Assembly (NCBI GenBank): GCA_024279135.1
Contig: JAJRRU010000014.1
Span: 23,351 to 87,350, forward strand
Direction: 5' to 3'
Length of the DNA: 64,000 bases
Source: Alphaproteobacteria bacterium
GTDB taxonomy: Bacteria; Pseudomonadota; Alphaproteobacteria; Rhodospirillales; Casp-alpha2
Shown one piece after another: positions 10,674-50,399 of the stretch. Both the position numbers and the translations under genes were made by a program. Position 1 is the first letter of the stretch. Each line of letters starts with the position of its first letter. A model generated the notes under the pieces. The model had not been told where the DNA came from. It made no database searches and worked only from the letters and a program-made list of their open reading frames with translations.

Positions 10674-10737
10674 GATTCGTACTATCACATGCAAAGATTC
10701 GTACTATCACATGCACGACTTCGTACTATCAGGTGCA
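10674..10737. repeat. iterons: 3 direct repeats at exact 22-bp spacing (oriV component)
   Basis: TTCGTACTATCACATGCA occurs at 10676 and 10698. TTCGTACTATCAGGTGCA occurs at 10720. The first two copies extend to the 20-mer GATTCGTACTATCACATGCA. Confidence 0.75.
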
Positions 10738-10767
10738 ACTATGTTTTCAACATATTGATTTTATTGA

Positions 10768-10810
10768 CAAAAACTTGGGGTAAAAACTTATAAAAACTTA
10801 TAAAAACTTC
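10768..10810. repeat. AT-rich tandem 10-mers (TAAAAACTTA x3 plus a partial copy), candidate DNA-unwinding element
   Basis: The sequence reads caaaaacttg ggg taaaaactta taaaaactta taaaaacttc and lies directly downstream of the iterons. Confidence 0.55.
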
Positions 10811-10966
10811 TTGGTAGTTGGTCCCTGAGAATTTTCCGCTTTCCCGCCTCAATCAAAAAATACTGAAACTTTTTTTTTGGATAGCAGGAGATAGCAGGGC
10901 TTCTCTGCGCATCTCTTGCGATAGCTACACATAGCTTAACATATTGTTTTCATTGATTTTTCTTAT

Positions 10967-29443: not shown

Positions 29444-31342
29444 ATGAAAAATAGTCACTTTATTCGAGGTGGGCAGACCGCCCTGCACGAATACAGGATG
29501 TCCATTCAGGTGGTCAAAACCCTGATATGGATTATCTCCGGGATCGCCATGACCTTCATGCTGATAAAACTGGTATTAAATCTGACCATCCACGAAGTTT
29601 ATCAATGGTTCGTCTGGCATTGGGCGCAGTTTCTTTACCTGGCTTCGTTCAGGTATGAACAGGAAATCACCATCTACGATTATGACTGGGTTCCATACGT
29701 CACCTACACCGGGGCGATTGTAGACCACCCCGGAATGATCGCCACCAAAGACAAAGTAGTTAACCTGATATTTTCGGGTAGCGGAATTGGCCTGTTGATT
29801 GGCCTGACCGTTGCCGCCATTGCAGCCGGGTATTTCCTGTGGCGCGGAGCCAGGTTGCAAAGAAGCAAGCACCTGCGTGGCTCCAAACTCTTGCCAGCAC
29901 CGGAACTGGTCCGACAAGTGAAGTCTTATAACAAGAAGCGTAACACCGGAACGCCTTATGCCATCGCCGGGATTCCATTCCCTGCTGGCGCACCTATGAC
30001 CCACGTTATGATTTGCGGAACCACAGGCACGGGCAAAACCACCTTGTTTGCCGATCTGATTGAACAGATCCGCGCCAACGGTGATCGTGCCATTATATAT
30101 GACAAGATGGGCGGGTTTGTCGGGCGCTATTATGATCCATCCAAAGACGTAATCTGCAATCCGTTTGATGCTCGCACCCCGCAATGGAGCGTGTTTTCCG
30201 AAGGCCGCAAAGCTTCTGACTTTGAGATGATGGCCAAGGCTCTGATCCCTGAACAAAAAGGCATGGTCGATCCGTTCTGGATTTTGGCTGCACGTATCTT
30301 GTTTTCCAAGGTAGCTGACGGATTGCGGATCGCGGGCAACCCCACCAATGAAATGCTGGTTTCGCAGCTCCTTAAAATCGACCTGACAGAAATGGCGGCA
30401 TTGCTCAAAAACACCGCAGCACAATCCATCATCGACGAGCAAAGCCCCAAAACTGCCCTATCCGTTCGCGCCGTGATGACCGCCTACCTGTCCTGCCTCG
30501 AACACTTGCCGGACGATCCCACGGCTGAACCCTTCTCTATCCGCAACTGGATTGAGGATGACGAGCGTGACGGCTTTATGTTCCTGACTTCTCGCGGCGA
30601 CATGCACGAAAGCATCAAGGGCTTAACCACATGTTGGCTGGAGATCGCGGTCAACAGCTTGCTCTCGCTTGAGCAAAGCCGGAACCGTAAAATATGGATT
30701 ATCCTCGATGAGGTTCCATCGCTCTACAACATCCCAAGCCTACAACCCGGCATGGCCGAAAGTCGCCAGTTTGGTGGGTGCTTCGTGCTGGGTCTGCAAG
30801 TTTGGTCAGCCATGCGCGACATCTACGGGCAGAACGGTGCAGAAACCCTCTCCGGGCTGGCACGAACCCGCCTGATACTCTCAACACCGGATAAATCCAC
30901 AGCCGACTGGTGCAGCCAGGCCCTCGGCAATGCGGAGAAAACCGAGCTTCAGGAAACCCTCTCATACGGCGCACATGACATGCGAGACGGCGTATCTCTG
31001 GCAGCAAGGAATGAGCTTCGCCCTATCGTCTTACCAACCGAAATCATGAGCCTCCCCGATCTGGATGGCTATATCCGCCTCCCCCAGGGCTTCCCGGTGT
31101 CCCGTTTTAGCATCCAACCCAACAAAACACCCATAATCGCCAAGGCCGTCGTTGAACGACCGCTCGCGGCCCTTGAATTGCCCCGGAGGCCGCCATTATC
31201 ATCCGAGAAACAATCCCAACCAAAGCCCAAACCCAAGCCTGCGCCAAAGAAGAAACCGAAACCTGCTCCAGAGCCAAAGTCCATTAAGGCTCCGCTAGTT
31301 GATGACCAAGAAGATGATTCAAAGAAAGGTCTTATCTTCTGA
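29444..31342 (+). CDS. traD: type IV coupling protein TraD
   Basis: 632 aa with N-terminal TM segments, Walker A GTTGTGKT and Walker B WIILDE. The tail is Pro/Lys-rich. Confidence 0.9.
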   Translation: MKNSHFIRGGQTALHEYRMSIQVVKTLIWIISGIAMTFMLIKLVLNLTIHEVYQWFVWHWAQFLYLASFRYEQEITIYDYDWVPYVTYTGAIVDHPGMIATKDKVVNLIFSGSGIGLLIGLTVAAIAAGYFLWRGARLQRSKHLRGSKLLPAPELVRQVKSYNKKRNTGTPYAIAGIPFPAGAPMTHVMICGTTGTGKTTLFADLIEQIRANGDRAIIYDKMGGFVGRYYDPSKDVICNPFDARTPQWSVFSEGRKASDFEMMAKALIPEQKGMVDPFWILAARILFSKVADGLRIAGNPTNEMLVSQLLKIDLTEMAALLKNTAAQSIIDEQSPKTALSVRAVMTAYLSCLEHLPDDPTAEPFSIRNWIEDDERDGFMFLTSRGDMHESIKGLTTCWLEIAVNSLLSLEQSRNRKIWIILDEVPSLYNIPSLQPGMAESRQFGGCFVLGLQVWSAMRDIYGQNGAETLSGLARTRLILSTPDKSTADWCSQALGNAEKTELQETLSYGAHDMRDGVSLAARNELRPIVLPTEIMSLPDLDGYIRLPQGFPVSRFSIQPNKTPIIAKAVVERPLAALELPRRPPLSSEKQSQPKPKPKPAPKKKPKPAPEPKSIKAPLVDDQEDDSKKGLIF

Positions 31343-34146: not shown

Positions 34147-34454
34147 GCGTGAACACCAAAGTCATCAGTATGCGAACCACCAAGGAAGACGGAACGCTGT
34201 TTGAACAGGCTGCCGCGCAAAAGGGACAAGCTATCAGTGTCTGGATGCGCGAAAACTTGCGCCAAAACGCATTGGAGCAAGTCTACGATACTGGGGAAAA
34301 GAATGACTTCCCCAGAACACCGGGGGAGACCGCCCTCTTCCGTGCCGTATTGGTCATATTGCAAACAGTCGGCGTTGACACGTCTGATGACACCAAACGG
34401 CTTTACGCAGAAAAAGCAGCCCTTCAAATCGACAAAATGAAAGCAGGAGAGTAA
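34143..34454 (+). CDS. ribbon-helix-helix-like small protein (possible relaxosome accessory factor)
   Basis: 103 aa. VISMRTTKEDGTLFEQAAAQKGQAISVWMRENL fits a beta-strand/helix/G-x-S/helix RHH pattern. It has an ATGA overlap with the relaxase gene. Confidence 0.45.
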   Translation: MSVNTKVISMRTTKEDGTLFEQAAAQKGQAISVWMRENLRQNALEQVYDTGEKNDFPRTPGETALFRAVLVILQTVGVDTSDDTKRLYAEKAALQIDKMKAGE

Positions 34455-35605: not shown

Positions 35606-35876
35606 CGAGTTAAAGTTCTCAAAAGTCCGGTTAATGCTGCAAGCAGAAGATTTCGCTTCGCAATTCATATTGATACGGAATAGCCATAAGGAGACATTAG
35701 ATGGTTGCTGTTTCACCCCGCATTTTGGCACCAAGATGCTTTCGGGTGGGAGCTGTCCAGGACATTAAGCTCAAGCATTGCTTGCAGCAACATAATGTGA
35801 TTAGTTTGGGCAGCACAAATCTGCACAGGAAGTCGGAATTTTGGCTCTACCATATCCAACTGTTAGGCACCTACAC

Positions 35877-36410
35877 ATGATCTACTACCGTCAAATGGAG
35901 CTATCCGAGATAGAACGTATTGCCGAAATTGATCGAACGGAGTACGTCACGAAGGCGTATCGACAAAATGGAGCGGAACTTGATCTGATTGATGTTGAGT
36001 GGGACATCGGCCAGTGGTCTGCACAGGAACAACTCAACGAGTGGGACAAATATTTACAAAACAATTGTGTGCTTTGGGGCGCGTTTGAAGGTGATTTTCT
36101 TGTAGGATTTTGTGGTTACAAGCCAAATATTGCACCTGGCATGGGCCTGCTCGCACTCATGTATGTCAGTGCTGCGCACCGCCGCCAAGGCATTGGACGA
36201 AAACTCACCGAAATGCTTGTGGAATATGGAAAAGAAAAACAAATTGCCAGCCTGTATGTTACCGCAGAGCACACAAGAGGAACCGTGGATTTTTATAGCA
36301 GCCTGGGATTTCGTCCAGCGGATCGACCATTACCTGAGTTACTGGAAATGGAGCCTGACGACATCCATATGCTGATGGAATTCCCGGGTCCAGGTAATCT
36401 GGTTGCATGA
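35877..36410 (+). CDS. GNAT-family N-acetyltransferase
   Basis: The acetyl-CoA motif is YVSAAHRRQGIGRKLTEML. The ORF is open from 35841 and I prefer ATG 35877. Confidence 0.75.
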   Translation: MIYYRQMELSEIERIAEIDRTEYVTKAYRQNGAELDLIDVEWDIGQWSAQEQLNEWDKYLQNNCVLWGAFEGDFLVGFCGYKPNIAPGMGLLALMYVSAAHRRQGIGRKLTEMLVEYGKEKQIASLYVTAEHTRGTVDFYSSLGFRPADRPLPELLEMEPDDIHMLMEFPGPGNLVA

Positions 36411-36658
36411 TACGGTGCAAATCTGCATCCAAGGTTAAAAAATGATTTAGACCAATTCGGTCTTTTATCACATGACTGGCTTAGACGAAGTCCACTTGAT
36501 CTGCTCCAAAAGAGCCGCTTCGAGTCAAAACACTAAATTTGATTATCTCAACATTTGTAAACATCTGGTCAATTACTCGTAGTCTTTCATCATACGAATT
36601 TAGGGTAATGGCGTGGATAGAAGGCTTCAAGCTGACTACCTTTGTGGTCTACTCAAAA

Positions 36659-36734
36659 TACCTGTAAACGCCCCCGGAACACCGCAGAAACGCTACGATT
36701 TTCTGCTTTTGATCCACAGAAGCGATAGGTGTGG
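36659..36734. repeat. left copy of an imperfect direct repeat bracketing the defence island (candidate att site)
   Basis: TACCTGTAA lies at 36659-36667 and ACAGAAGCGATAGGTGTGG at 36716-36734. The same two halves are contiguous at 48866-48891. Confidence 0.35.
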
Positions 36735-37070
36735 GAGAATTTTTCGCTTTAGCGTCACATAAAAACGCTCAGTAATATCAGTTTTGATTCTCAGGCTGAA
36801 ACCCGCATTTTATCTACGATTTTTCCACTTTGCAAGGGGATGGTGGGGTTGATATTTAACCCTGATTTGGGCTTAGGCGTATCGCCAAAATCAAAAATCC
36901 GCTGCACTCCGGGAAGGGATTTTGATATTTTCGTGGTTCTAGGAGTCTCAAAAAATCCGGGTTTCTGGCAAAAAGTGCAGCGGATTTTTCGGAAGGCCTA
37001 CAAGACAACCCTTAATATGGCGTGACACTGACTCATCTTGTGTTGCGTGGGGTGATTTTATGACTGTTTT

Positions 37071-37182
37071 AATAAAAGTTGCCCCCTGAATGCAGAAGCA
37101 CGCAGGGGGCAGAGCTTTACGAGAATATCCCCGGAGGGAATCTCTTACCATAACAACACTTTTTGCATCGTTGTGCTATGTG
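37071..37182 (-). ncRNA. tracrRNA: predicted tracrRNA
   Basis: The minus strand at 37180-37147 pairs with the minus-sense CRISPR repeat (34 positions: 26 Watson-Crick, 4 G-U, 4 mismatches by hand). It is followed by UAAG, a GAGAUUCCCUCCGGGGAUAUUCUC hairpin and a GCCCCCUG..GCUUCUGC..CAGGGGGC hairpin plus AACUUUUAUU. The -10 TAAGAT (37194-37189) and -35 TTGATA (37216-37211) have a 16-nt spacer. Confidence 0.7.
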
Positions 37183-37250
37183 CTTTGCATCTTACAGGCT
37201 TATCTTGTAATATCAAAATACTTTTTAGCTAAACGCATAAGGGGAAAAAC

Positions 37251-40200
37251 ATGCGGGTAATTGGCCTTGATGTGGGGATTAATTCTGTTGGCTTTTCTTT
37301 CATCAACATGGATAAAAGTGAAATTCTGGAAATGGGCAGCCGCTTGTTTGAGGCTGCGGAGCACCCAAAATCTGGCGCTTCCCTCGCCTTGCCACGAAGA
37401 GAGGCACGGGGGACTCGACGCAGGCTGGCCCGCAAAGCGCGAAAGGTTTCCCGGCTTCGTACCCTATTGAAAGAACACGGCCTGCCTGCGCAAAAAATTG
37501 TTCAATTAAAAAAGGGAGACAAGTCACCCTGGCAATTGCGCAAGGAGGGCCTGGAGCGTGTACTAAGCGATGAAGAATTTGCCCGCGCCCTGATCCACTT
37601 TGCCAAACGCCCCGGATTTCAAACAAACCGTAAATCGGCCCCGCCAAATGAAGAAACAACTTTCACGAAAGCCGGGAATGACCTTTACGAGGCCATGAGC
37701 GCAGGGGGAGCAAAAACAATTGGCGCCTGGTTAGCCGATCAGCCAAAACAACGTAATGATCCAGACAGTTATGGGCGCACTGTTATCCGCGACCACTTGA
37801 GGGCAGAAATCAAAACCCTGTTCACAACCCAACGCAGCTTCGGTAATCAAAAGGCAACAGAGCGGCTGTGTGATGATGTCATCAAATTTGCCTTTTATCG
37901 CAGAGACCTGCAATCCAGTCTGAAGCTGGTGGGCAAGTGTGCCGTGTATGGGGGCGAAGGGGAAAAACGCGCACCAAAAAGAGCCTTTCACGCGGAGCTG
38001 TTTGTTGCGCTTTCACGGTTAACCAACTTGAACATAATTTCGTATAACGGCGACAAGCGCCCCCTGGGTATTGAGGAAATTGCCTTGCTTGAGCAAAAGG
38101 CGCTCACAACAAGCAAGGTAACCTTTGCCCAGGCGCGAAAAACTCTCAACCTGCACGAAGATGAAACTTTCAACCTAGCCTCCTATACTTTCAAGCCGGG
38201 TGAGGCGTTGACGAAAGAGCAAGTCAGGGAACGGGCAGAGAAACTCTGCCTTGTGGAAATGAAAGGTTTCCACACATTGCGTGTTGCGCTTGAAAGAATA
38301 TCCAAAATGGATTGGGCGGCACTTGCATCAAGGCATGATGATCTTGACCAGATCGCCTTTGCCCTGTCGTTCTATGAATCTGAAGATGACATCAGGAGCC
38401 AACTGGAACCTTTAAACCTGTCTGAAAATAAAATCATTGCCCTGCTGGGAGCAACTGGCTTTTCCCAGACCATCAACATTTCCTTAAAAGCCGCAAAAGA
38501 AATAATTCCATACCTGCGGCAGGGTGAAACCTATATGGATGCGGTATTGAAAATACGCCCGAACCACCAGGTACGCGCAGGAGAGCAAACGCTTCTGCCT
38601 CCCTTGGCAGAAAGCACGAGAAACCCGATTGTTGATCGCTCACTGTCACAAATCCGCAAGGTCGTCAACGCTCTGATCCGCAAACACGGAATGCCGGATT
38701 ATTTCCATGTGGAAACAGCACGGGACCTGGGGCGAAATTTCAAGGATCGCAAATCAATAGAATCCGACAACAAAAAGCGCCAAGCATACAAGGAGGCAAC
38801 CAGGAAACATGCCGCAGAGATTTACGGGTTCGAGCCCAACGGAGATCAACTGGCCCGGTTTCGCCTGTGGAAAGAGCAAAACATGTGCTGCCCGTATTCT
38901 GGCGAAGAAATCAAGCCCCACCATCTCCAGAATGGCACGGATACACAGATAGACCATATCCTGCCTTATAGTCGTTCATACGACGATTCATGGTCAAACA
39001 AGGTGCTGTGTTTTTCCCGTGAAAATCAGGCCAAGGGAAATCTGACCGCGTGGGAATACATGGAGCGCAACAACATGACGCGGGAACTTGAGGCTTTTGC
39101 CAGGGGACTGGATTATCATCGAAGGAAAAAGCTGTTAACGCAGAACTTTGATGAAGAAAAGGAAAAGGACTGGAAGTCCCGCCATCTGAATGACACCCGT
39201 TACGTTGCGCGCGCGCTGAGCGCGTACCTGGAAGAAAACCTGAAACCAAACCCCAATATTAAAAAGCTGGTTCGCACCCGCAAGGGTGGGCTGACCAGCA
39301 AGCTGCGCCACTTGTGGGGCTTGCCGGAGAAAGACCGTGAAAACGATCACCGACACCACGGTGTAGATGCCTTGGTAATTGCCTGTGCGACAGACGGCAT
39401 GGTGCAAAAAGTGGCACGGTGGAGTCGATACCAACGCGGCAAAAGGGACGATCCGGGCTTTTATGCCGATACCCCGTGGGAAAATTTCCGCAAGGATGCG
39501 CTGGCGAAACTGGATGAAATGTTCGTAACTCGCCAGCCATCGCGTAAAACCGGCGGAAGGCTGCACAAGGACACGATCATGAGCCTGCGCTTTGATGATG
39601 AGGGAGCGTGGCAGGCCATCAAACGGGTTAAGGTAAAGGACTTGAAAAAGTCGGATCTTGAAAACTTGGTTGATGTGGAGATTATAGACGGTCAACCCCG
39701 TGGTCGAAACGCCACTTTGTACAAAGTGCTGAATGACCGTCTGACGGCGTTCGACAACAAACCGGACAAGGCTTTTGCCGAACCTGTGTTCATGCCGCTA
39801 AAACCCGAAAAAACCGGACCGAACGGAGAGCCTCACGGCCCAGAAATTCGCCGGGTGCGGGTTTACGATAACACCAAAGCTGGTTTTCGCCTCAAAAACA
39901 ATGGTTTTGCAGACAATGCAGAAATGGCCTGGACGGAAGTTTACGAAAAAGACGGAAAGTTCTACCTGCTACCGGTTTATACATGGCAGGTAAAGACAAA
40001 GAAATGGCCCCGAGGACTGATATATCAAGGGCGTACAGAGGAAAGCTGGCCAAATGTTGATGATGGTTACGCCTTCCTGTTTTCCCTGTTCAAGAACGAT
40101 TTCGTGGTACTCAAAAATAGTAAAAGCGTAATTACAGAGGGATATTTTAAAGGTACACACCGCGCATTGGGGCAAATAAACATTGAACAGCATAAAGGAG

Positions 40201-40322
40201 ATAATGCCGCAAATTACGGTGTTAAAACCCTGAATTCATTCCGCAAATACCACATCGACCTGTTTGGCGGACGTTCCGAAATAAAGGAGAGTACGCCGTG
40301 GCGTGGCGAACCGTCATCATAA
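37251..40322 (+). CDS. cas9: type II-C CRISPR-associated endonuclease Cas9 (1023 aa)
   Basis: RuvC-I is MRVIGLDVGINSVGFS. The Arg-rich bridge helix is LPRREARGTRRRLARKARK. The HNH motif is DTQIDHILPYSRSYDDSWSNKVLCFSRENQAKGN. RuvC-III is HHGVDALVIA. cas1 and cas2 follow with no csn2 or cas4. Confidence 0.97.
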   Translation: MRVIGLDVGINSVGFSFINMDKSEILEMGSRLFEAAEHPKSGASLALPRREARGTRRRLARKARKVSRLRTLLKEHGLPAQKIVQLKKGDKSPWQLRKEGLERVLSDEEFARALIHFAKRPGFQTNRKSAPPNEETTFTKAGNDLYEAMSAGGAKTIGAWLADQPKQRNDPDSYGRTVIRDHLRAEIKTLFTTQRSFGNQKATERLCDDVIKFAFYRRDLQSSLKLVGKCAVYGGEGEKRAPKRAFHAELFVALSRLTNLNIISYNGDKRPLGIEEIALLEQKALTTSKVTFAQARKTLNLHEDETFNLASYTFKPGEALTKEQVRERAEKLCLVEMKGFHTLRVALERISKMDWAALASRHDDLDQIAFALSFYESEDDIRSQLEPLNLSENKIIALLGATGFSQTINISLKAAKEIIPYLRQGETYMDAVLKIRPNHQVRAGEQTLLPPLAESTRNPIVDRSLSQIRKVVNALIRKHGMPDYFHVETARDLGRNFKDRKSIESDNKKRQAYKEATRKHAAEIYGFEPNGDQLARFRLWKEQNMCCPYSGEEIKPHHLQNGTDTQIDHILPYSRSYDDSWSNKVLCFSRENQAKGNLTAWEYMERNNMTRELEAFARGLDYHRRKKLLTQNFDEEKEKDWKSRHLNDTRYVARALSAYLEENLKPNPNIKKLVRTRKGGLTSKLRHLWGLPEKDRENDHRHHGVDALVIACATDGMVQKVARWSRYQRGKRDDPGFYADTPWENFRKDALAKLDEMFVTRQPSRKTGGRLHKDTIMSLRFDDEGAWQAIKRVKVKDLKKSDLENLVDVEIIDGQPRGRNATLYKVLNDRLTAFDNKPDKAFAEPVFMPLKPEKTGPNGEPHGPEIRRVRVYDNTKAGFRLKNNGFADNAEMAWTEVYEKDGKFYLLPVYTWQVKTKKWPRGLIYQGRTEESWPNVDDGYAFLFSLFKNDFVVLKNSKSVITEGYFKGTHRALGQINIEQHKGDNAANYGVKTLNSFRKYHIDLFGGRSEIKESTPWRGEPSS

Positions 40323-41188
40323 GCTCGGAATGCCGGGTTTCGTTAAAGCGCAGCCAGTTAGTGGTTGAGCGGGAAGACGACACACTGAGTGTTCCGGTCG
40401 AGGATATTGCTGTTTGCGTACTCGAACACAGGGGCATTACCGTTTCAACGGCCCTGCTTTCATCCCTGTGCGAGGCAGGAGCCGCCATTGCCGTTTGTAA
40501 CAACCGCCACTTGCCCAACGGCTTGATGCTGCCGCTCCTCACCCATTCGCGGCAAAGTCAGATTGCGGCGTTACAGGCTGGATGGTCTACTCCATTCAAA
40601 AAAAGGGCATGGCAAAACATCGTTCGTGCAAAAATAATCAACCAGGCCCACTGCTTGGCCCGCCGCGATCCGGAAAAAGGCAAGACCATACGCGAAATGG
40701 CAAAACGGGTTGATTCCGGGGATTTAAAAAACCGGGAAGCCCACGCCGCCCGAACCTACTGGCCCGCCCTGATGGGCAAGGGCTTCATTCGCGGGGCCGG
40801 AGACCTGCCCAACAGTTTTTTAAATTACGGATACACGGTTGTGCGCGCCTGTGTCGCCCGCTCGCTAGTCGGGGCCGGATTGCTGCCCTGCTTTGGGCTT
40901 CATCACGATAACAACCTGAACGGATTTAACCTTGCCGATGATTTAATCGAACCGTTTCGCCCCTTTGTTGATGACGCCATCATTGGCTTGGCCGCTCACC
41001 GCGACAAGAAAGACGACCTTAACAAGGAGGATCGCGCCGCCCTCGCCCAGCTCCCGGCCACTCAGGTTCTGATTGAGGGCGAACTGCAAACCATACTGAA
41101 TGCCACGCAAATTTCGGCTGAAAGCCTGGTACGTGCCATACGGAACAAAGACGCTTCGGCCTTGTGCCTACCGGAATTTTCCATGTAA
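40298..41188 (+). CDS. cas1: CRISPR-associated endonuclease Cas1 (type II)
   Basis: GTG 40298 follows AAGGAGA. 296 aa with the NYGYTVVRA and GLHH motifs. It overlaps the cas9 end. Confidence 0.95.
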   Translation: MAWRTVIISSECRVSLKRSQLVVEREDDTLSVPVEDIAVCVLEHRGITVSTALLSSLCEAGAAIAVCNNRHLPNGLMLPLLTHSRQSQIAALQAGWSTPFKKRAWQNIVRAKIINQAHCLARRDPEKGKTIREMAKRVDSGDLKNREAHAARTYWPALMGKGFIRGAGDLPNSFLNYGYTVVRACVARSLVGAGLLPCFGLHHDNNLNGFNLADDLIEPFRPFVDDAIIGLAAHRDKKDDLNKEDRAALAQLPATQVLIEGELQTILNATQISAESLVRAIRNKDASALCLPEFSM

Positions 41189-41208
41189 GCCATGAGGGAT
41201 GACTGAAA

Positions 41209-41550
41209 ATGAGCGTAAACGGAGATCGCTTCATGTGGATAATGGTATTTTTTGACCTGCCAGTTGGCACAAAGCCACAACGACGCGCTGCCACTCGTTT
41301 TCGCAATTATTTGCTCAAGGATGGTTATATTATGCTACAATTCTCCGTCTATGGGCGAATCTGTAACGGCCAGGAACGGGTTGATAAACATCTAAAGCGC
41401 CTACAGACTGTTTTGCCGTCAAATGGCAACATTCGCGCCCTGCAAGTCACCGATCAGCAATACGGACGTATGAAGATTCTTCTAGGAGAACGAGATGAAA
41501 ACGAAGAAAAAGATACAAAAAACAATGGCGGACAGCTCCTTTTACTCTGA
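41209..41550 (+). CDS. cas2: CRISPR-associated endoribonuclease Cas2
   Basis: 113 aa. MWIMVFFDLPVGTKPQRRAATRFRNYLLKDGYIMLQFSVYGR is Cas2-like. Confidence 0.9.
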   Translation: MSVNGDRFMWIMVFFDLPVGTKPQRRAATRFRNYLLKDGYIMLQFSVYGRICNGQERVDKHLKRLQTVLPSNGNIRALQVTDQQYGRMKILLGERDENEEKDTKNNGGQLLLL

Positions 41551-41596
41551 ACAATCCGCCATTTATTCTTTGTTTTCAACCGGCTAACAGGAGCGT

Positions 41597-43216
41597 ACCA
41601 TAACATAACGATGCAAAAAGGGAAGCTATGGCACCCACGATTTTATGAAACGGGTAATTTTTACCATAACATAACGATGCAAAAAGGGAAGCTATGGCGG
41701 CTAGTAGGGTTTCGCGCCTGTTCAAGCCACCATAACATAACGATGCAAAAAGGGAAGCTATGGCTGGCTTGCAATAACAGGACCAGGGCGATCCACCATA
41801 ACATAACGATGCAAAAAGGGAAGCTATGGCAGCTTTTGTACTCTTACGAGCCATAGTATTACCATAACATAACGATGCAAAAAGGGAAGCTATGGCGGCT
41901 GATTTGGTGTTCAATGCAGCAAACTAACCATAACATAACGATGCAAAAAGGGAAGCTATGGCCGTACTAATGGTGGTGAGAAGTTCCTAGGTACCATAAC
42001 ATAACGATGCAAAAAGGGAAGCTATGGCCTAATGTTCCATATCAAGTCTAATGCTAAGACCATAACATAACGATGCAAAAAGGGAAGCTATGGCTAAGTC
42101 TCTAAGAACTGATTTGATTAATCAACCATAACATAACGATGCAAAAAGGGAAGCTATGGCTATCATTAGACTGCCTAAATTTTAATAGAGACCATAACAT
42201 AACGATGCAAAAAGGGAAGCTATGGCTACCTTTTCATGTTTAGCATTGACCATCTGACCATAACATAACGATGCAAAAAGGGAAGCTATGGCTCCTACAG
42301 GAGAGCATGACTGGTCTGAAAAACCATAACATAACGATGCAAAAAGGGAAGCTATGGCTATTCCTCTCTTGGCCCCCCCCAAGAAGAGACCATAACATAA
42401 CGATGCAAAAAGGGAAGCTATGGCTCCATTGCGGCATGCCATTCACGGCTCAATACCATAACATAACGATGCAAAAAGGGAAGCTATGGCCGGTCTTACG
42501 TAATACCAGCGCCGCAATCAACCATAACATAACGATGCAAAAAGGGAAGCTATGGCTCTTCACATGATGCAGTCGCTCATAATTGGACCATAACATAACG
42601 ATGCAAAAAGGGAAGCTATGGCCGATGGTAAAACGTATGCCCAGATTACCGAACCATAACATAACGATGCAAAAAGGGAAGCTATGGCGGTTGGCACTCA
42701 GCTGGCCTTGAGCGAAGAACCATAACATAACGATGCAAAAAGGGAAGCTATGGCCTGCGCAAAGCGTTTACGGTAGTTATTAAAACCATAACATAACGAT
42801 GCAAAAAGGGAAGCTATGGCTTATAAGCCAGAATATGCAATACAGGATTTACCATAACATAACGATGCAAAAAGGGAAGCTATGGCCATTGATTGTTGAT
42901 TTCAATGAAGTTGGCGACCATAACATAACGATGCAAAAAGGGAAGCTATGGCTCCAAAGCTATAATGGATTAAAGGCTGTTAACCATAACATAACGATGC
43001 AAAAAGGGAAGCTATGGCTTCAGAAACATAAGACGGTTTGCCAAAGCGACCATAACATAACGATGCAAAAAGGGAAGCTATGGCCAACGCCCTTGCTGGC
43101 ATTATTGGCAGCATACCATAACATAACGATGCAAAAAGGGAAGCTATGGCTGCCTGCTAGATGTTCAAAAATGTTTCGTTACCATAACATAACGATGCAA
43201 AAAGGGAAGCTATGGC
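41597..43216 (-). CRISPR. CRISPR array: 25 identical 36-bp repeats, 24 spacers of exactly 30 bp
   Basis: The plus-strand repeat is ACCATAACATAACGATGCAAAAAGGGAAGCTATGGC, at 41597+66k for k=0..24; all were checked by eye. The minus-sense form is GCCATAGCTTCCCTTTTTGCATCGTTATGTTATGGT. It resembles type II-C (Neisseria-like) repeats and is complementary to the predicted tracrRNA, so the crRNA is read from the minus strand. Confidence 0.97.
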
Positions 43217-43259
43217 TAATTCTTTGATTGCTAACTTTCGTTAGCAATCAAAGAATTAG
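43217..43259. terminator. perfect 19-bp-stem hairpin abutting the last CRISPR repeat
   Basis: taattctttgattgctaac-tttc-gttagcaatcaaagaatta starts at the first base after repeat 25. Confidence 0.5.
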
Positions 43260-43630
43260 CCAGCTTGACCGGCAAGCCGCTCCCTGCAAATAACCTCAAC
43301 CAAATCCTATAACTTGCGAATACGGGCTTACAGCCCTTCGAGTTCTTCGGCTGTGATTTCGTAGTGTTTGGAATATCGGGCCTCGACGTAGGCGCGGCGT
43401 AGTAACTCAAATTTCCACTTAACGGAGCGTTGCTAGTGGCAAATGTTCCAGTGAAGTTTTCATATGTCCTGTTTATCAAAAATCAAACAGGACAAAAGAA
43501 GAATGAACACTCATACCCTTAATTTTGAATCTGGCATAATAATTAGAAAATATCCATATTTGGTAGTCGATTTTAATTATATGCCAGCTTATGATGTTGC
43601 ATTCATTTATACATGGTGAAATTTTAGCAT

Positions 43631-45112
43631 ATGATTAAAGCAGCCGCACTAGCCCAAGCCGATTATCTGACAGCCAAGCCCGAAGTGGTACGTAAAGAGC
43701 TTGGGCAATATTTCACTGGTAGCTCTATAGCCGACTATATGGCTTCAATGCTGGAACCAGTAAGCGCACCTACGGTGCGTATTCTTGATGCTGGTGCAGG
43801 GGCTGGTATCCTGACCATTGCAGCCGCAATGCGATATTTGGCCTTAGGCAATAACTGCGTTCACGCTGTGTTGTATGAAATCGATCAGGACACCCTATCG
43901 CATTTAGAACTCAATATGCGTCGTGTAGCCAAAGCGTTCAAGGAACAAGGTGGATCATTTACCTTTGAAATTCGCCACGAAGATTTCGTATTGGCAAGGC
44001 CGGATCGTAAAGAAGAACGCTTCCATGCGTCTTCGATAAATCCGCCATACTTCAAATATAGTTCCAAAACGTCACCTTATGCCAGTGCAACGCCAGACCT
44101 CTACAAGGGAAACCCGAATATTTACGCATCTTTCATGGCTGTCGTAGCAGCCTGCATGACTGATGATGGGCAAATGATTGTCATTGTTCCCCGAAGTTTC
44201 ACCAATGGCCTATATTTCAAAGGATTTAGAAGATACCTTAATCGCGCTATGAGCCTTGAAAAAATCCATATTTTCAGAGCACGCAACCAAGTGTTCCGGG
44301 AATCAGCCGTGTTGCAAGAAAATATCATTTGCAGCTATCGTAAGGCGCAACAGGGAACTTCTATTAGTATTTCCACCTCAACAGGGCACCATGACCTAAG
44401 CCAAACTGAAACCAATCACTACCCCGCTAGGCAACTGATAGACACAACAAACGCCCATGAAATAATTCGTATTCCGGAAACAGTTGAAGATGCCAAGATA
44501 TTAGCAGGTGTCGAGCATTGGCCTTCAAGTTTTCAAGACAACGGTTACTTCATCTCAACTGGCCCGGTGGTGGAACATCGCACACGGGAATTTATCACTG
44601 CCCCTGACAACATAAAAAACAGCATTCCATTGCTAAGAATGCACAATATCAAAACACTTAAAACAGAGTGGACTGGAACCAACAAAAAGGATGCCCGCTT
44701 CCTTTTGCTCAATTGCCATGAGAAGCACACATCAAACAATTTACCCTATGTCATCTTGAAACGTTTCAGCTCAAAAGATGAGAAGCGCCGTTTAGTCGCT
44801 GGAGTGCATAACCCTGAGGTAATTAAAGGCGAAATCATCGCCTTGGAGAATCATTTAAATTACATTGGGCACAATGATGGCCCTCTTAAGCAAGATGAAA
44901 TTTACGGATTGGCATTATTATTCAACTCAACACTGATAGATAAATATTTCCGATGTATATCAGGGAACACCCAGGTAAATGCAACTGAAATACGGCTCCT
45001 GAAGTTACCTGCCCGTGACACAATCAGGAAAATAGGTAAAACCTACAAATCAAATAGCTCTTTTCCACAAGAGCAAATAGATATGATTATTGAACGATTT
45101 TTAGAAATTTAA
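43631..45112 (+). CDS. N6-adenine DNA methyltransferase (gamma-class, PstI/BsuBI-system type)
   Basis: 493 aa with SAM motif [13 protein letters not shown] and catalytic motif [12 protein letters not shown]. The cognate endonuclease gene lies directly upstream of its partner position, immediately after this gene. Confidence 0.85.
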
Positions 45113-45126
45113 AGGCCCCACAAATA

Positions 45127-46098
45127 ATGAGTCAAAGAGAAGAAAAACTGCTGCAGGCACAAGAATTATTAAAAGCACTTGGCTTGCCAAAATCGCAATA
45201 TAACAACCGCTCGGCGTGGGTATTTCTCGCCTTATCGAATATTAAACCGGATGATAGTTGGAACAACGCACAAGCTCCATTACTTCCAACTGTAGAAATA
45301 ATGCAGTTCATACGCGAACACTACGGACAGGATTACAAACCAAATTCCAGAGAGACAATTCGCCGTCAAACACTTCATCAATTTGAGCAGGCCCGCATTG
45401 TTGACCGCAACCGGGACGACCCTTCGAGGGCCACCAACAGCAAGGATAATAATTACTCGCTGAACTCACCTATCATTGAAGTGCTAAAGACTTTCCCTGG
45501 CGGCAACTGGAAACAAAGAATTGAACGGTACAAAGCCGATCTGCAAAGCCTTCAAGAGCTTTACCAGCGCAGTTTAGAAATGCATAAAATCCCCGTAAAA
45601 TTACCCAGTGGGCAAGAAGTTAAACTATCGCCCGGTAAACATAATCAGCTACATGCTGATATTATTCATGAGTTTTGCCCTCGCTTTATTGGTGAAGGTG
45701 GAATCGTGCTTTACATCGGTGATACCGCAAGTAGCCGCAAAGAGGGCGGCAAACTAATGGTGCTGGAAACGGAAGTTCTGGAAGAACTGGGCGTTCCTCC
45801 GATGTCACATGATAAATTACCTGACGTAGTCGTTTATGATAAAAAGCGGGAATGGTTATTTCTTATCGAGGCTGTGACCAGTCACGGCCCGGTATCACCC
45901 AAACGTTGGATTGAACTGGAAGATGCACTAAAAACATGCAAAGTAGGCAGAGTCTATGTTACCGCCTTTCCTGACAGAGCAGAATTTCGTAGAAACGCTG
46001 CTGATATTGCTTGGGAAACGGAGGTCTGGATTGCTGACAATCCAGACCATATGATCCATTTCAATGGTGATCGCTTCTTAGGGCCACACAAAAGATAA
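45127..46098 (+). CDS. BsuBI/PstI-family type II restriction endonuclease
   Basis: 323 aa. The N-terminus (..[60 protein letters not shown]) and C-terminal catalytic part (..[26 protein letters not shown]..) match my memory of this family. Confidence 0.8.
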
Positions 46099-46119
46099 CC
46101 CCAGAAATATTCTGGCCCT

Positions 46120-47592
46120 TCACCCCTCCAACGCCACCGTTCGCGCCCAACAGGCCATAGACAGCCCGGCGGCTTCGGCTGACTCTACGTATTGCTGATG
46201 TTGCTCGCTGGGTATGGACAAATTCACCTTTACGGCTCTCAATCCCCATTTTGACGGGGTTGGCAATATGGGCGGCGGGGTTTCCAGCCTTTTTGCCAGC
46301 CACATGGGAATGCTCAAGCCTTCGGCATCGGCTTTGCTCTTGGCGATGGCTTCCTCGTCTTCGTTAAGCCGGAAGGAAAACACCGCCTTTTTGACTGTCG
46401 GTGGCCCTGGCTTCCTCACCCTTTCCAGCATCACCCCAATTTCCGGCGATAAACCGCCAAGCAAGCCTTGCAGAGTTTGCCCGATCCGCTCGGCGGCTTC
46501 TTCTGTCTGTTTATCGGTCACATGGGTATAGCGCAGGGTCATGGAGGTTTTCTTGTGGCCTAACAATTTGGAAACCATCGGCAACGGTACACCGCGCAAC
46601 ACTGCATGGCTGGCGAAGGTGTGGCGCAGGTCGTGGACTCGCACGTCTGGCACTCCGGCCCTTTGGCGAACGAGCACCCAGAACAGCCCCACTTCCGGGC
46701 GTGCCCTTTTGGTATCGCGGTAGAATGGGAACACAAAGGGGCTTTTGCCTCTTGGTTGCTTGCTCAACAGCTTCACCGCTTCCTTGCACAGGTAAACGTC
46801 ACGAGGCCCGGTTTTGGTGTCTGCCAACTTGATAACATCGCCTTTGACCGTTGACCATTTGAGACTGCAAATCTCCTGATGGCGGCACCCGGTAAGCAGT
46901 AGCATTCGTATAATATCGGCACCCTGTTTGTCTTCCGGCCTTTCGAGTTCAATCTGGCCCAATATCCGCGATACCGTGTTGATTTCCTCGGATGACAGAA
47001 ACCGGTTAAGCGTTTTCTTCGGGTTCTTCTTGATGCCCTGCACCGGGTTCTCGATCAGGTGTCCGCACACAATGGCGAACTCCATCATGGAATAGAGCAT
47101 TTCCAGAACACGGTTGGCCCCGCCGGGGAACTCATTGCTGTATTCTTCGAACCATCGGGCCACCAGCGCCCGGTCAATCTCGTCCAGATACAGCTTGCCG
47201 AAGTTTGGCATTAACCGCGCATTGATATAGCAGCGGGTCGATCTTTGCCCCGATGGTTTGAACTGGCTGAACTTCTGCTCCCACCAGATACCGTTGATAA
47301 AATCGGCAAACAGCGGTGTTGCTGAATTGCTGACTCCTGAACCCTCCGGCGTGTCGCCCTGTGCGATTTTCTCAAGGCATAGTTTCCGGGCTTGCACTTC
47401 ATCAATCACCGGAAACTTACCAAGGGTAATCCTGCGCGATTGCTTTTCCACCTGCTTATGCAGAACAAAGGATTTATAGCCGGACGGTTTGACGCGAAGC
47501 CCAAAGCCGGAAAGCTGGCTATCCCAAACGGTGTATTCTTTATCGGTTGGGGCAAGGCGTTTAATGCGCTGGCTTGAAAGTTTGGTTTTCAT
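46120..47592 (-). CDS. P4-type tyrosine integrase with a ~112-aa C-terminal extension containing two RHH-like modules
   Basis: The DUF4102-like arm domain is TVWDSQLSGFGLRVKPSGYKSFV. The catalytic motifs are HDLRHTFAS and LLGHKKTSMTLRYTH. The extra tail contains AVFSFRLNEDEEAIAKSKADAEGLSIPMWLAKRL and AVKVNLSIPSEQHQQYVESAEAAGLSMACWARTVAL. Confidence 0.9.
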   Translation of the reverse strand: MKTKLSSQRIKRLAPTDKEYTVWDSQLSGFGLRVKPSGYKSFVLHKQVEKQSRRITLGKFPVIDEVQARKLCLEKIAQGDTPEGSGVSNSATPLFADFINGIWWEQKFSQFKPSGQRSTRCYINARLMPNFGKLYLDEIDRALVARWFEEYSNEFPGGANRVLEMLYSMMEFAIVCGHLIENPVQGIKKNPKKTLNRFLSSEEINTVSRILGQIELERPEDKQGADIIRMLLLTGCRHQEICSLKWSTVKGDVIKLADTKTGPRDVYLCKEAVKLLSKQPRGKSPFVFPFYRDTKRARPEVGLFWVLVRQRAGVPDVRVHDLRHTFASHAVLRGVPLPMVSKLLGHKKTSMTLRYTHVTDKQTEEAAERIGQTLQGLLGGLSPEIGVMLERVRKPGPPTVKKAVFSFRLNEDEEAIAKSKADAEGLSIPMWLAKRLETPPPILPTPSKWGLRAVKVNLSIPSEQHQQYVESAEAAGLSMACWARTVALEG

Positions 47593-48734
47593 TATTTCAA
47601 CTCCCCGGCAATAGCGGAGGCCACGTCTCGGGCTGTCTCGCGAACATGCCCGTTAGCAAGGTGCGCGTATTTAAGAGTGGTTTCCGGGTCAACATGTCCC
47701 AGCAACCGCCCGATGGTCAGAATATGCTCACCATGTTCAAGGGCAATGCTGGCATAAGTATGGCGAAGGTCATGCATCCGCACCCCTTCCAGCCCTGCCC
47801 GTTTGCGGATCGCGCTCCAATGAACGATATGGTTACAAGCACCGCGACAGTTGTTCACGGTGCTGGCTGTCGATCTGGCGGGAAGCACATACGGGGATGA
47901 CGTGCGCGGGATGGCATCGAGCACGGCACAGGCTGCGGTGGACAGGTAGACCGTTTTTGCCCCGGTCTTGCTATCGGGCAGATACAACTTGCCGTGCTTG
48001 TAGTCCGTCCATTTCAGATTAATGATTTCACTTTTCCGGCATCCCGTTAAAATCAGCAGGTGGAAGAAAGCAACGCACACCGGAGAAATTGTTTTGTACT
48101 CCTGCAAAACCTGCCCAAGCCTTGCCAGTTCGACGGCTGACAGGAAACGCTCCGAGGGTGCCATTTTATAACGGGGAATGCCCTTGCATGGGTTGGTGTT
48201 GTCCGGGCGGTATCCGTATAGCTCGGCCTGTTGCATCATCACCGACAAAACAGGCAAGGCCCGGTTGGCTGGCCCCGCCCTGTTGCCCAAGGACGCGAAC
48301 CAGCGTTTAATCAGGTTCTTGTCGATTATGGCAATCTGCATTCCTTTGAAAAAAGGCAAAATATCACGCTCATAAGCGTTGCGACTGGCGAGAATAGTTG
48401 ACGATTTCCAGTTGCGTTTATAGCGCTCAAAAAACATCGCGCCCACGTCTTCAAACAAGGCAATTTCAAGTTGCTTTTTTCCCGCTACGGCCTTGCCTTC
48501 GGCGGTACAGGCCAAAGCCAGTTCGCGGGCTTTGGCTTCGCCCAACTCGGCGGTGGTGCCAAGACTTTCTTGCTTGCGCCTTCCCCTGTTCTGGGTCTGG
48601 ACAAAAAACAATTTACGCCCAGTCGGATAAACTCGCACCCCGTAACCGGGTATGATAGTATCGCGGATAACGTAATCTTTTTGGCGCAATTTGAGAGATT
48701 CAACGAATTTCTGTGTCAGCTTTTTCTTTTCCAT
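47592..48734 (-). CDS. P4-type tyrosine integrase
   Basis: The ORF is open to 48812 and I prefer ATG 48734 after GGAG. The arm domain is VIRDTIIPGYGVRVYPTGRKLFF. The catalytic motifs are HDLRHTYAS and LLGHVDPETTLKYAH. Its stop shares one base with the downstream integrase start. Confidence 0.9.
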   Translation of the reverse strand: MEKKKLTQKFVESLKLRQKDYVIRDTIIPGYGVRVYPTGRKLFFVQTQNRGRRKQESLGTTAELGEAKARELALACTAEGKAVAGKKQLEIALFEDVGAMFFERYKRNWKSSTILASRNAYERDILPFFKGMQIAIIDKNLIKRWFASLGNRAGPANRALPVLSVMMQQAELYGYRPDNTNPCKGIPRYKMAPSERFLSAVELARLGQVLQEYKTISPVCVAFFHLLILTGCRKSEIINLKWTDYKHGKLYLPDSKTGAKTVYLSTAACAVLDAIPRTSSPYVLPARSTASTVNNCRGACNHIVHWSAIRKRAGLEGVRMHDLRHTYASIALEHGEHILTIGRLLGHVDPETTLKYAHLANGHVRETARDVASAIAGELK

Positions 48735-48865
48735 GATTTCAGTATCTCCATGAAACGGGTTCAAAAAACCGCTGCACTGGAGGAAAGGAAAAACCAAAGC
48801 CACCCGCTGCAACGGGCAACCCGAATAAAAAAACTGAATATTTTGAGCTACTTAGCTTCTCCCAC

Positions 48866-48891
48866 TACCTGTAAGACAGAGATAGGTGTGG
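48866..48891. repeat. right copy of the imperfect direct repeat bracketing the defence island (candidate att site)
   Basis: TACCTGTAAGACAGAGATAGGTGTGG lies 54 bp beyond the open end (48812) of the outer integrase ORF. Confidence 0.35.
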
Positions 48892-49432
48892 TCACTTAAC
48901 GTCCGAGGACGTCCCGTAATCAGCGAGGGGCAAAGCCCTTTTTTGCTGTTCGGGTTCACAAGATGACATAGAGAACGGAGTAGTCCCTCTTGGGGGACAG
49001 ATAGGGGGTGCAGGTGTTGATCGTATCTCCCGCGCAAGGGGCAGTCACCCGAAGGGATAAGACGCGCCTTCGCGGCTTAGTGACGAGCTTCTTGGCGAGG
49101 AATATGACCCGGTCCGACGAAGGAGGATGCGCCCAGACCTTACGGCATAACAAACAGCCTGACAGGCAAAAATGATCTCCCCAAATCAGCCAAAACAAGC
49201 TCCCAAACCTGATTAAATATCACCCTCGACAGGCACTCAAAAAAATCTCGCCATTACAAAAACCGTTCCCGCAAAAACTCCACTCGCAACCGTCCAGGGG
49301 TGCCGGGGACTTGTCCCCGGCTGGGTCAAGGGCAAAGCCCTTGGTTGGCGCAAGCCAATGCGGATCGTCACCCACAAAAAAGTCAAAAGCCGATCAGGCT
49401 TTTGTCCGCAATAAACTCAGCAGGCGGGCATA

Positions 49433-49465
49433 AAAATAACCCTGCCGGTGATTACCGACAGGGCT
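49433..49465 (-). terminator. rho-independent terminator of the DUF2493 gene
   Basis: On the minus strand, CCCTGTCGG-taatca-CCGGCAGGG is followed by TTATTTTT, 8 nt after the stop codon. Confidence 0.6.
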
Positions 49466-49472
49466 TGTGTGC

Positions 49473-50399
49473 TTATGCGTATTTCTTTGTTGGGATGCCC
49501 ATGCCTCGGGCTTTGTCTACCAAATTCTCGGTGATGCCGGTTCCGGGGAATGCCAGCACACCGATGGGCAAAATCTCCAGCATTGAGTCGTTACGTTTGA
49601 ACCCGGCGCGGGATTTTCCGTATTTGTTCCAGTCCGGCTTGAACACCACTTGCGCGACCTTTCTGGCGGCGGCCCATTTGGCGGCAATCAGATCTGTGCC
49701 TTTCGGTGCACCTCCATGAACCAACGTCATGTCCGGGTGTTTCTTGTGAGCCTTGTCGAGGGCAGCGAATATCAGCTCGTACTCGTTGAAGTCCATGCCT
49801 CCGGCGACGACCACCGTGGGGCCTTCGGGTGCCATTGAGAGTGTCTTTTTGCGCTCGGTGGCGGCGAGGAAGTCTCGGCTGTCAACCACGGCGGCGGTCA
49901 TGTGTGATGTGCTGATGCGGGAGCCTCGGCTTGGCATCCACGGTTGTCCGGTCTGGGCCGAAAAAAGCTCGGCTGCGTGGTCGCGCATGGTTTCAAAATA
50001 TTCGCGGGCGTATGATGTGGCTTTGGCCCGGATTTCAAGTTTCTCCAGTTCCACCGATTTCACCTCGGTTCCGTCCTGTTCACGGATGGCGCGGCGGATA
50101 TCGAAGCTCAGTTGGTCGAAACCTTTGTCGAGGCGGTCGAGCTTGCGCTGGAAGACGTTGACTGTGTTCCACAGCACGTCGGTGGCCTCGCTCTCCAAGC
50201 ATGTATCTGTGAAGAGATGGGCCAGACTGTCAAACACGTTGTCGAGGGTTGCAAAGCTGTGATCTTGCTCGGGCAGGGGCCGGGGATCGACTTCATCTGC
50301 TGGGGGCATGGCACCGAAGAGCTGCATGCGGTTCATAATCTCGTGGGTGGCGCTCTGGCCTGTCAGGCTGTCGGTGATGTCGGGTGTTTCTGAATACAT
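49473..50399 (-). CDS. DUF2493 (SLOG-like) domain protein with a ~190-aa N-terminal extension
   Basis: 308 aa. The C-terminus TVVVAGGMDFNEYELIFAALDKAHKKHPDMTLVHGGAPKGTDLIAAKWAAARKVAQVVFKPDWNKYGKSRAGFKRND is DUF2493-like. Confidence 0.75.
   Translation of the reverse strand: MYSETPDITDSLTGQSATHEIMNRMQLFGAMPPADEVDPRPLPEQDHSFATLDNVFDSLAHLFTDTCLESEATDVLWNTVNVFQRKLDRLDKGFDQLSFDIRRAIREQDGTEVKSVELEKLEIRAKATSYAREYFETMRDHAAELFSAQTGQPWMPSRGSRISTSHMTAAVVDSRDFLAATERKKTLSMAPEGPTVVVAGGMDFNEYELIFAALDKAHKKHPDMTLVHGGAPKGTDLIAAKWAAARKVAQVVFKPDWNKYGKSRAGFKRNDSMLEILPIGVLAFPGTGITENLVDKARGMGIPTKKYA

Follow-up and report, generated by a model that had tools for sequence, protein, structure and literature searches.

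CRISPR-Cas systems are known to travel with mobile DNA in several settings. Their presence in integrase-bearing islands is established in Vibrio (PMC6360697), and CRISPR-Cas on plasmids and on integrative and conjugative elements (ICEs) is likewise established, as in CampyICE1, a Campylobacter ICE with a type II-C Cas9 (PMC8743540). Islands that hitch on conjugative elements through an origin of transfer (oriT), namely iOriT elements and integrative mobilizable elements (IMEs), are also well described (bioRxiv 10.64898/2026.01.13.699239). Here we analyse 64,000 nucleotides of an alphaproteobacterial contig (assembly GCA_024279135.1, contig JAJRRU010000014.1, positions 23,351 to 87,350), referred to throughout as the window, in which a Cas9 system, a restriction-modification (R-M) pair and two tandem integrase genes form one block within a conjugative replicon.

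With a probability of about 0.8, we read positions 36735-48891 as an integrative island of 12,157 bp (one 11-bp core included), inserted at a specific non-coding site of a conjugative F-type/MOBF plasmid. The initial annotation, made from the letters of the window alone, had listed a tracrRNA, cas9-cas1-cas2, a CRISPR array, an N6-adenine methylase, a BsuBI/PstI nuclease and two P4-type integrases (here IntB and IntA), and this gene content was borne out by Pfam, NCBIfam and PDB searches. It had also proposed that an integrase-borne island, bounded by attL and attR, carries Cas9 and R-M within a conjugative replicon, a proposal that now has the support of empty sites in related plasmids and of the differently occupied locus L085 (fetched loci are given L numbers). 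What the comparisons establish is a past insertion only, and the description of the island as 'self-mobilising' is unproven. The borders and their surroundings are as follows.

36664-36723, no strand: plasmid-backbone flank left of the island (B' side of attB), in contiguous alignment with L106; TACCTGTAA (36659-36667) is backbone and lies outside att
36724-36734, no strand: attL core GATAGGTGTGG, an exact copy of 48881-48891 and a match to the L003 consensus
36735-37052, no strand: island-internal non-coding arm far from the integrases (P' arm), with a conserved segment at 36782-36858 and an inverted pair of the candidate arm-type site
48735-48880, no strand: island-internal arm beside IntB (P arm, promoter region), with a candidate arm-type site at 48764-48777 (- strand)
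48881-48891, no strand: attR core GATAGGTGTGG, where the L085 homology stops and the L106 empty-site alignment ends
48892-49472, no strand: target, backbone DNA of the plasmid that is non-coding and rich in hairpins, downstream of the DUF2493 gene, outside the island and conserved in relatives

The evidence that carries this reading is comparative. Related plasmid backbones were fetched via close homologues of the DUF2493 protein encoded to the right of the block, and the closest relative is L106 (DUF2493 protein identity 90% or more). There, the right flank and core of the window (49472 to 48881) align to 2880-3423, with 452 of 597 columns identical, and the left flank and core (36734 to 36664) align to 3413-3480; the two alignments overlap on a single CCACACCTATC at 3413-3423. 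Because the flanks of the window are joined in this way, exactly on one core copy, the island is delimited as 36735-48891, and the 11-bp common core GATAGGTGTGG (CCACACCTATC on the integrase strand) is duplicated in exact copies at 36724-36734 and 48881-48891. On the plasmid, attB lies in non-coding DNA that separates the DUF2493/SSB genes from the par and accessory genes.

The site is empty in two other plasmid lineages as well, as seen in L092 and L096. The plasmids L092-L094 and L096-L100 (87-89% identity) have one CCACACCTGTCGCT and neither integrases nor cas genes at the site, within the gene order Sbn, Toprim, SSB, DUF2493, ~730 nt of non-coding DNA, HipAB, ParA and TrwC. The 581-nt right flank aligns end to end with the L092 and L096 regions at ~70% identity, scoring 276-279 against a shuffle mean of 21, and the left flank has a weaker match in L092 at the same offset. 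The initial annotation had named the search for an empty site as a check, and had allowed that the island claim would fail if homologous plasmids always carried the block; related plasmids lacking the block do exist. In PLSDB there were no near-identical plasmids, and those with a DUF2493 protein at ~50% identity are without the target region. The slot between the gene for the ParA partner and attB is itself variable, holding a GNAT gene here (35841-36410), HipBA in L092 (11654-13322) and L096, and an ORF of 293 aa in L106 (3736-4617), and is a second hot spot beside the island site.

The same position is occupied elsewhere by a different element. A 680-nt flank in L085 is ~95% identical to window positions 49565-48884, the end of the DUF2493 gene included, and the identity breaks exactly after GTGACCACACCT; beyond lies the interior of a different tandem-integrase element, of the L001 type, and the L085 IntB is only 63% identical to that of the window. 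Exact-pattern scans for the att flank gave no match in viral contigs, and the L085 contig was the only one returned by the metagenome scan. An independent view of the core comes from L003, in which a 36-nt direct repeat of 86% identity (ACGTCTTACGACG...TCTCCCACACCTGTC.CT), with its copies 5.2 kb apart, encloses IntB, IntA and toxin-antitoxin genes. The 18-nt consensus of the two copies, TCTCCCACACCTRTCKCT, has a single match in the window, without mismatches, at 36721-36738 (- strand), where the expectation is 0.08 even with 3 mismatches allowed. In L086 the end of an MFS transporter gene meets an L003-type interior at CACACCT. As read from these alignments, one site holds different elements, and one element type (L003, L086) sits in different targets.

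Further homologies touch the same regions. Window positions 36858 to 36782 are 77% identical to L001 9704-9781, a segment followed after ~62 nt by a core and the next IntB, and L003 1-288 is homologous to the target region 48892-49472 at 61%. L001 1-10000 has the appearance of two tandem-integrase elements arrayed in tandem, the first with TerB, BrxC/D-like, DEAD-box and Fic genes as cargo, the second with a fragmented IntA and adjoining decayed tra genes. In L011, positions 12085-15842 hold three to four further tyrosine recombinase genes in a row, recombinase-in-trio-like, inside a tandem-integrase island that duplicated ~270 nt of a porin gene at its borders. As to the type of target, no tRNA or tmRNA gene is present in the window; in L003, a tRNA-Arg gene lies ~280 nt away from the direct repeat.

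The initial annotation had read the borders from the repeat itself, as two halves split on the left and contiguous on the right. The strings stand where it placed them (TACCTGTAA at 36659-36667, ACAGAAGCGATAGGTGTGG at 36716-36734 and TACCTGTAAGACAGAGATAGGTGTGG at 48866-48891), but only the GATAGGTGTGG part is a true att core: TACCTGTAA falls ~60 nt beyond the island border, within backbone flank to which the empty-site plasmids can be aligned, the split geometry is unreal, and the left border is 36724-36734 rather than 36659. In the narrow windows of the initial annotation, chosen after the fact, the match was reached in 12 of 2000 shuffles with standard gap costs and in 10 of 2000 with free gap extension; between the whole intergenic regions (36411-37250 against 48735-49472) the core alignment score of 23 was reached in 114 of 500 dinucleotide shuffles, so that the core repeat is not significant by itself. 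The best repeat between these regions is another one, 36891-36919 against 48761-48789, of 29 nt and score 33 (0 of 500 shuffles).

That unbiased comparison is what speaks for the simplest alternative, in which the repeats are due to chance and the block is a variable plasmid region with two unrelated integrase genes. We consider it highly improbable: it is contradicted by the empty sites, with the L106 flanks colinear on one core, by the L085 homology that breaks exactly at the core, by the L003-derived consensus that is exact at the left border, and by the retention of the integrase pair in more than 50 loci. Taken alone, the observed repeat is insufficient to carry the claim of an island, and it is the comparative data that settle the question. 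The locus has a directly repeated core at both ends, validated through homology, an unoccupied target with flanks joined at the core in relatives, and a tyrosine recombinase encoded beside one end, as is expected of an integrase-borne island. The two recombinase genes are these.

47592-48734, - strand: IntB, P4-type tyrosine integrase of 380 aa, its 5' end facing attR (PF00589, PF14659, PF13356)
46120-47592, - strand: IntA, P4-type tyrosine integrase with two C-terminal NikA-like ribbon-helix-helix repeats (PF00589, PF13356, PF21983)

Both integrases have the full catalytic set R..HxxR..H..Y, with TGCR, HDLRH, LLGH and K/RY read in their translations; the PF21983 match of IntA reaches 36.7 bits against a cutoff of 27, in two stretches. 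The stop codon of IntB overlaps the start of IntA by 1 nt, and the genes are translationally coupled. Where the initial annotation placed the integrase ORF 54 bp from the repeat, IntB most likely starts at ATG 48734 and not at TTG 48812, which puts the core ~150 nt upstream. A 380-aa protein identical to IntB in the ATG 48734 reading is in the database (P0001); an exact look-up of the window's IntB gave no record.

A scan of species-representative genomes for IntB returned 80 loci, and nearly all of those at least 42% identical to it have an IntA 10-30 nt downstream; the IntB-IntA operon recurs in more than 50 loci, with three to five copies in several genomes. Homologues at 57-63% identity are each followed by an IntA homologue and then by cargo (HigBA and BrnTA in L003, HigBA and MNT/HEPN in L089, and in L001 the TerB, BrxC/D-like, DEAD-box and Fic genes named above). 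Of the 80 loci, 23 have an 8-mer within one mismatch of CCACACCT, a CACACC-type core, at 118-150 nt upstream of IntB, where chance would give ~0.01 per locus. Distant relatives of IntB that occur as single integrases (L069-L083) have exact direct repeats of 45-50 nt that read like tRNA 3' ends, in the same geometry. The cargo of more distant members is heterogeneous and their short repeats are uncertain, hence we do not claim a family dedicated to defence. A full-text literature search found no description of a two-gene operon of P4-type integrases, and the IntB-IntA operon would define a previously undescribed and widespread two-integrase family of mobile elements.

The arms of the island suggest how these proteins might act. 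A 14-nt candidate arm motif, GTGCAGCGG(A/T)TTTT, has exactly three copies in the 64 kb (GTGCAGCGGWTTTT), all of them at the island ends. Two form a perfect inverted pair of 15 bp in the far arm (AAAAATCCGCTGCAC at 36893-36907 and GTGCAGCGGATTTTT at 36975-36989), and the third lies 43 nt upstream of IntB, a position kept in L003 and L086 (in L086 as read from the sequence). The core is adjoined by a small palindrome, CTGTAAGACAG, within 48735-48880. The motif in both arms is a putative arm-type binding site for the N-terminal Arm-DNA-bind_3 domains. On the model we favour, the island would have entered by site-specific recombination between its own attP and the plasmid attB; the two integrases would act together on the core, the ribbon-helix-helix tail of IntA would supply regulatory or directionality DNA binding, and the element would excise as a circle. 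The joined island ends would then form attP, a near-perfect palindrome TTCTCCCACTACCT-N13-AGGTGTGGGAGAA, the halves of which are now 12 kb apart. The predicted circle junction is GCTTCTCCCACTACCTGTAAGACAGAGATAGGTGTGGGAGAATTTTTCGCTTTAGCGTCAC (...GACAGAGATAGGTGTGGGAGAATTTTTCG...), and the predicted repaired backbone site is TTTTGATCCACAGAAGCGATAGGTGTGGTCACTTAACGTCCGAGGACG (...CAGAAGCGATAGGTGTGGTCACTTAACG...).

The larger part of the cargo is a CRISPR-Cas module, with the following components.

37073-37190, - strand: tracrRNA (anti-repeat, nexus, terminator), recognised by its anti-repeat and by promoter-like and terminator-like sites
37251-40322, + strand: cas9, type II-C, 1023 aa (HNH_4, RuvC_III; TIGR01865, 672 bits)
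40298-41188, + strand: cas1 (PF01867, E 7e-30)
41209-41550, + strand: cas2 (PF09827, E 2e-16)
41597-43216, - strand: CRISPR array of 25 identical 36-nt repeats and 24 unique 30-nt spacers

With cas9, cas1 and cas2 as its only cas genes (no csn2 or cas4), a tracrRNA and an adjacent array, the module has the composition of type II-C, and is apparently a complete Nme-like system. The closest solved structure to Cas9 is 6JDQ (E 7e-159), listed as Cas9, which we take to be Nme1Cas9. The tracrRNA anti-repeat (37148-37190) is ~80% complementary to the CRISPR repeat; on the - strand, a promoter-like site at 37216-37189 precedes it and a terminator-like site lies at 37100-37080, and the region is kept in chromosomal relatives. 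In reverse complement the repeat reads GCCATAGCTTCCC...TGTTATGGT, the type II orientation, and we infer that its end TGTTATGGT is an extended -10-like element. This orientation suggests that crRNAs come from the - strand, on which the array is probably transcribed; Neisseria meningitidis crRNAs are likewise transcribed in such an orientation. None of the spacers matched the window, any fetched locus, PLSDB or the phage collection.

The extent of the cas module, 37053-43217, was set by ~80% DNA identity to an integrase-free chromosomal locus. The closest cas9-cas1-cas2 relatives are chromosomal and without integrases (Cas9 identity 83% and 71%), which points to the capture of a chromosomal-type module. 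Directly after the last CRISPR repeat stands a perfect palindrome with 19-bp stems, TAATTCTTTGATTGCTAAC TTTC GTTAGCAATCAAAGAATTA (43217-43258, 42 nt). The similarity in DNA to the chromosomal cas loci ends at exactly this point, and the palindrome may be a terminator or a junction of the module.

The second cargo unit follows immediately.

43631-45112, + strand: N6-adenine DNA methyltransferase (PF07669, PF02384)
45127-46098, + strand: BsuBI/PstI-family restriction endonuclease (PF06616, E 1e-63; PF17728, E 6e-49)

The catalytic and helix-turn-helix domains of BsuBI_PstI_RE, encoded beside an N6-adenine methyltransferase, place the pair among type II R-M systems of the BsuBI/PstI kind. CTGCAG, the PstI/BsuBI site, occurs twice in the 64 kb, at 22596 and at 45151 (the latter inside the nuclease gene itself), against ~16 occurrences expected from base composition. 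This scarcity suggests long exposure to restriction of the PstI type. Carried on a conjugative plasmid, the island would give both adaptive and innate immunity to plasmid and host, and would spread with the plasmid.

The composition of the block was a further check proposed at the outset, and it sets the island apart from the backbone: in tetranucleotide use the two correlate at r = 0.67, whereas equal-sized pieces of backbone never fall below 0.82. Tetranucleotide use within the island is most deviant in the R-M pair and least so in the integrases.

A number of observations weigh against a mobile island of the present extent. We found no circular junction, no excised site and no second copy of the cas9-bearing island, and an exact-pattern scan of metagenome contigs, aimed at the flank and not at the junction, gave no circle junction. 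Pfam detected no excisionase or recombination directionality factor among the small ORFs of the island, for which the ribbon-helix-helix tail of IntA is a candidate substitute. The 11-bp core common to both ends lacks significance by itself, as described above, and the left flank matches the empty sites over a short stretch, ~70 nt, since the adjoining accessory slot holds other genes there (HipBA or the 293-aa ORF, against GNAT here). The part played by having two integrases is read from their conservation only. Moreover, the GC content of the cargo varies (0.44 in R-M, 0.51 in cas and 0.54 in the integrases); with modules that differ in composition the island is a mosaic, and may have gained cargo after landing.

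Such points can be assembled into a second account, in which the integrases brought about the arrival, CRISPR-Cas and R-M were added in place at what is now a fixed composite hot spot, and the present att sites and integrases no longer move the whole 12 kb. The compositional differences among the three modules, the chromosomal and integrase-free context of the closest Cas9 relatives, the palindrome at the end of the cas module, the lack of a second copy or of an excisionase, and the decay of family members such as L001, with its IntA in fragments, would all fit. The account is nonetheless unlikely in our judgement, given that both integrase genes are full length and have kept their catalytic motifs and the 1-nt overlap, the two copies of the core do not differ, each end has intact candidate arm sites and all 25 CRISPR repeats are the same.

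The replicon that carries this island had been described as an F-type conjugative plasmid or ICE; it is a plasmid and not an ICE, as the window holds RepA (PF10134, 8597-9442) and an iteron-bearing, origin-like region. The latter, at 10395-10830 near RepA, is likely the replication origin, with GAGTATAC three times, two DnaA-box-like CTGTGGATAA/G, three iterons of ~22 nt (TTCGTACTATCACATGCA...) and three AT-rich AAAACTTATAAAAACTT repeats. An F-type mating apparatus (TraC, TraH, TraG_N), a TrwB coupling protein and a TrwC/TraI-type relaxase (31342-34146) identify a MOBF conjugative plasmid. Directly after the relaxase, a 103-aa ORF (34143-34454) has a weak ribbon-helix-helix-like match (DUF6290, E 0.002) and a position kept in L092, L096 and L106; it may encode a relaxosome accessory protein. 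To the left of the block lie ParA and then the GNAT gene ending at 36410; to the right, on the - strand, are DUF2493 (49473-50399), SSB, a Toprim protein and a Strawberry-notch helicase. Immediately before the first tra gene, 10860-10960 contains direct repeats GATAGCAGGAGATAGCAGGG and a small hairpin AGCTA-CACA-TAGCT, which has words in common with the hairpin on the attB side (CGCTAC..GTAGCG, GCGATAG); repeats and hairpin could be regulator sites or an alternative oriT.

The target region (48892-49472) is rich in hairpins, with DNA-fold z-scores of -1.9 and -4.2. No Rfam family was detected in it at gathering or relaxed thresholds, and a two-sequence fold gave some compensatory pairs at an alignment depth that is too little. 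Against L085, positions 48955-49057 (alignment columns 544-645) form a divergent patch of ~100 nt in a flank otherwise ~95% identical, in which one hairpin keeps its pairing by compensatory change (GTCCC..GGGAC versus GTCCT..AGGAC).

The nick site of the F plasmid is TTTGCGTGGGGTGT/GGTGCTTT (GGGGTGT/GGTGC, the slash marking the nick; PMC2504302). On the + strand, the empty site reads CGCTAC-ACCA-GTAGCG ATAGGTGT GG, that is, a hairpin, 8-10 nt and then GGTGT/GG, and a second hairpin follows 7-9 nt further on; its sequence varies between lineages and the pairing is kept. The resemblance of the target to an F-type oriT nick site is speculative, and as a tentative extension, which we rate at well below even odds and to which the objections to the third account below also apply, the attB used by the island may be the plasmid's own oriT nick site, with GCGATAGGTGTGGTCAC as the candidate relaxase target sequence at the nick-like core. 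Taking the + strand as the one transferred, the first DNA to arrive would be the hairpin-rich region, followed by DUF2493 and SSB as template strands, in accordance with leading-region logic. Were this so, insertion of this clade's tandem-integrase islands would take place at the start of the leading region and would duplicate the nick sequence. A recipient would receive the island before any other DNA, or the island could be passed on by itself from one nick copy to the other, and IntA would couple integration to the relaxosome through its NikA-like tail.

Pressed further, the same resemblance yields a third account: that the relaxase rather than the integrases mainly moves the island, the core being a duplicated oriT nick at which transfer starts on one copy and finishes on the other, so that the island is transferred or deleted alone. 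Its attractions are the F-like order of hairpin, 8 nt and GGTGT/GG, a plasmid relaxase of the TrwC/TraI type, which belongs to the F relaxase superfamily, the order of entry set out above, and the NikA-like, relaxosome-type domains of IntA. We rate it as decidedly improbable. This group of plasmids has no mapped oriT, a match of 8 nt counts for little, an ordinary attP/attB pair would likewise show similarity on either side of the core, and the repeats upstream of the tra operon (~10.86-10.96 kb), beside the oriV-like region, offer another place for oriT. Furthermore, the CACACC cores of other family members lie inside ordinary genes (the MFS gene of L086, the porin gene of L011), which argues that the core is an integrase site first.

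The precisely mapped borders and matching empty sites make excision and integration directly testable and define attP and attB for a new pair of integrases. The case also exposes a large family with two coupled P4-type integrases, of which we found no description in the literature, and raises the idea of a plasmid transfer origin as an integration site for defence islands. In this last respect a comparison can be made with iOriT and integrative mobilizable elements. Like them, this is a small island without relaxase or mating-pore genes that is tied to a conjugative element, and its defence genes lie beside a possible oriT-like sequence; it differs in that an oriT function of the att region is hypothetical and in that the island sits inside the helper plasmid itself.

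With Tn554, SE, GInt and RIT elements it shares an operon of more than one tyrosine recombinase gene at one end, small size and few target sites. Those elements have tfp and srap, ginC and ginD, tnpC or a third recombinase, and terminal inverted motifs, whereas here there are only two P4 arm-binding recombinases and a directly repeated core; cargo comes directly after the integrases in L003, L089 and the window alike, with none of the extra genes. This comparison is one of gene content taken from the descriptions of those elements, not a sequence search. BIM and RIT were also considered as the family and rejected (PMC3414803).

Another comparison is with the islands and satellites integrated by P4-type integrases, including the CRISPR-Cas islands of Vibrio (PMC6360697). 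There too the integrase gene is at one end with its 5' end facing att, each end bears a copy of a short core, the element brings along a copy of its target sequence, and the cargo comprises defence and toxin-antitoxin genes; the single-integrase relatives of IntB (L069-L083) are islands of this kind. Those islands have one integrase, whereas this one has two paralogous integrases in a coupled operon, one with a ribbon-helix-helix tail. Its target is non-coding DNA of a conjugative plasmid rather than a tRNA gene, its core has just 11 bp, and it yielded no AlpA/Xis gene.

With regard to cargo, the counterpart is CampyICE1 (PMC8743540), which likewise has a type II-C Cas9 on a conjugative element and for which, as here, inter-element warfare is a plausible role. 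Compared with it and with plasmid-borne CRISPR-Cas, no spacer targets were identified for the present array. CampyICE1 carries Cas9 alone, whereas the system in the window is complete, with cas1, cas2, tracrRNA and 24 spacers, and is the cargo of a small separate island nested in the plasmid rather than a part of the backbone. The locus would be a clean natural example of complete Cas9 immunity and R-M as portable cargo of a small integrative element within a conjugative plasmid, with three layers of mobility.

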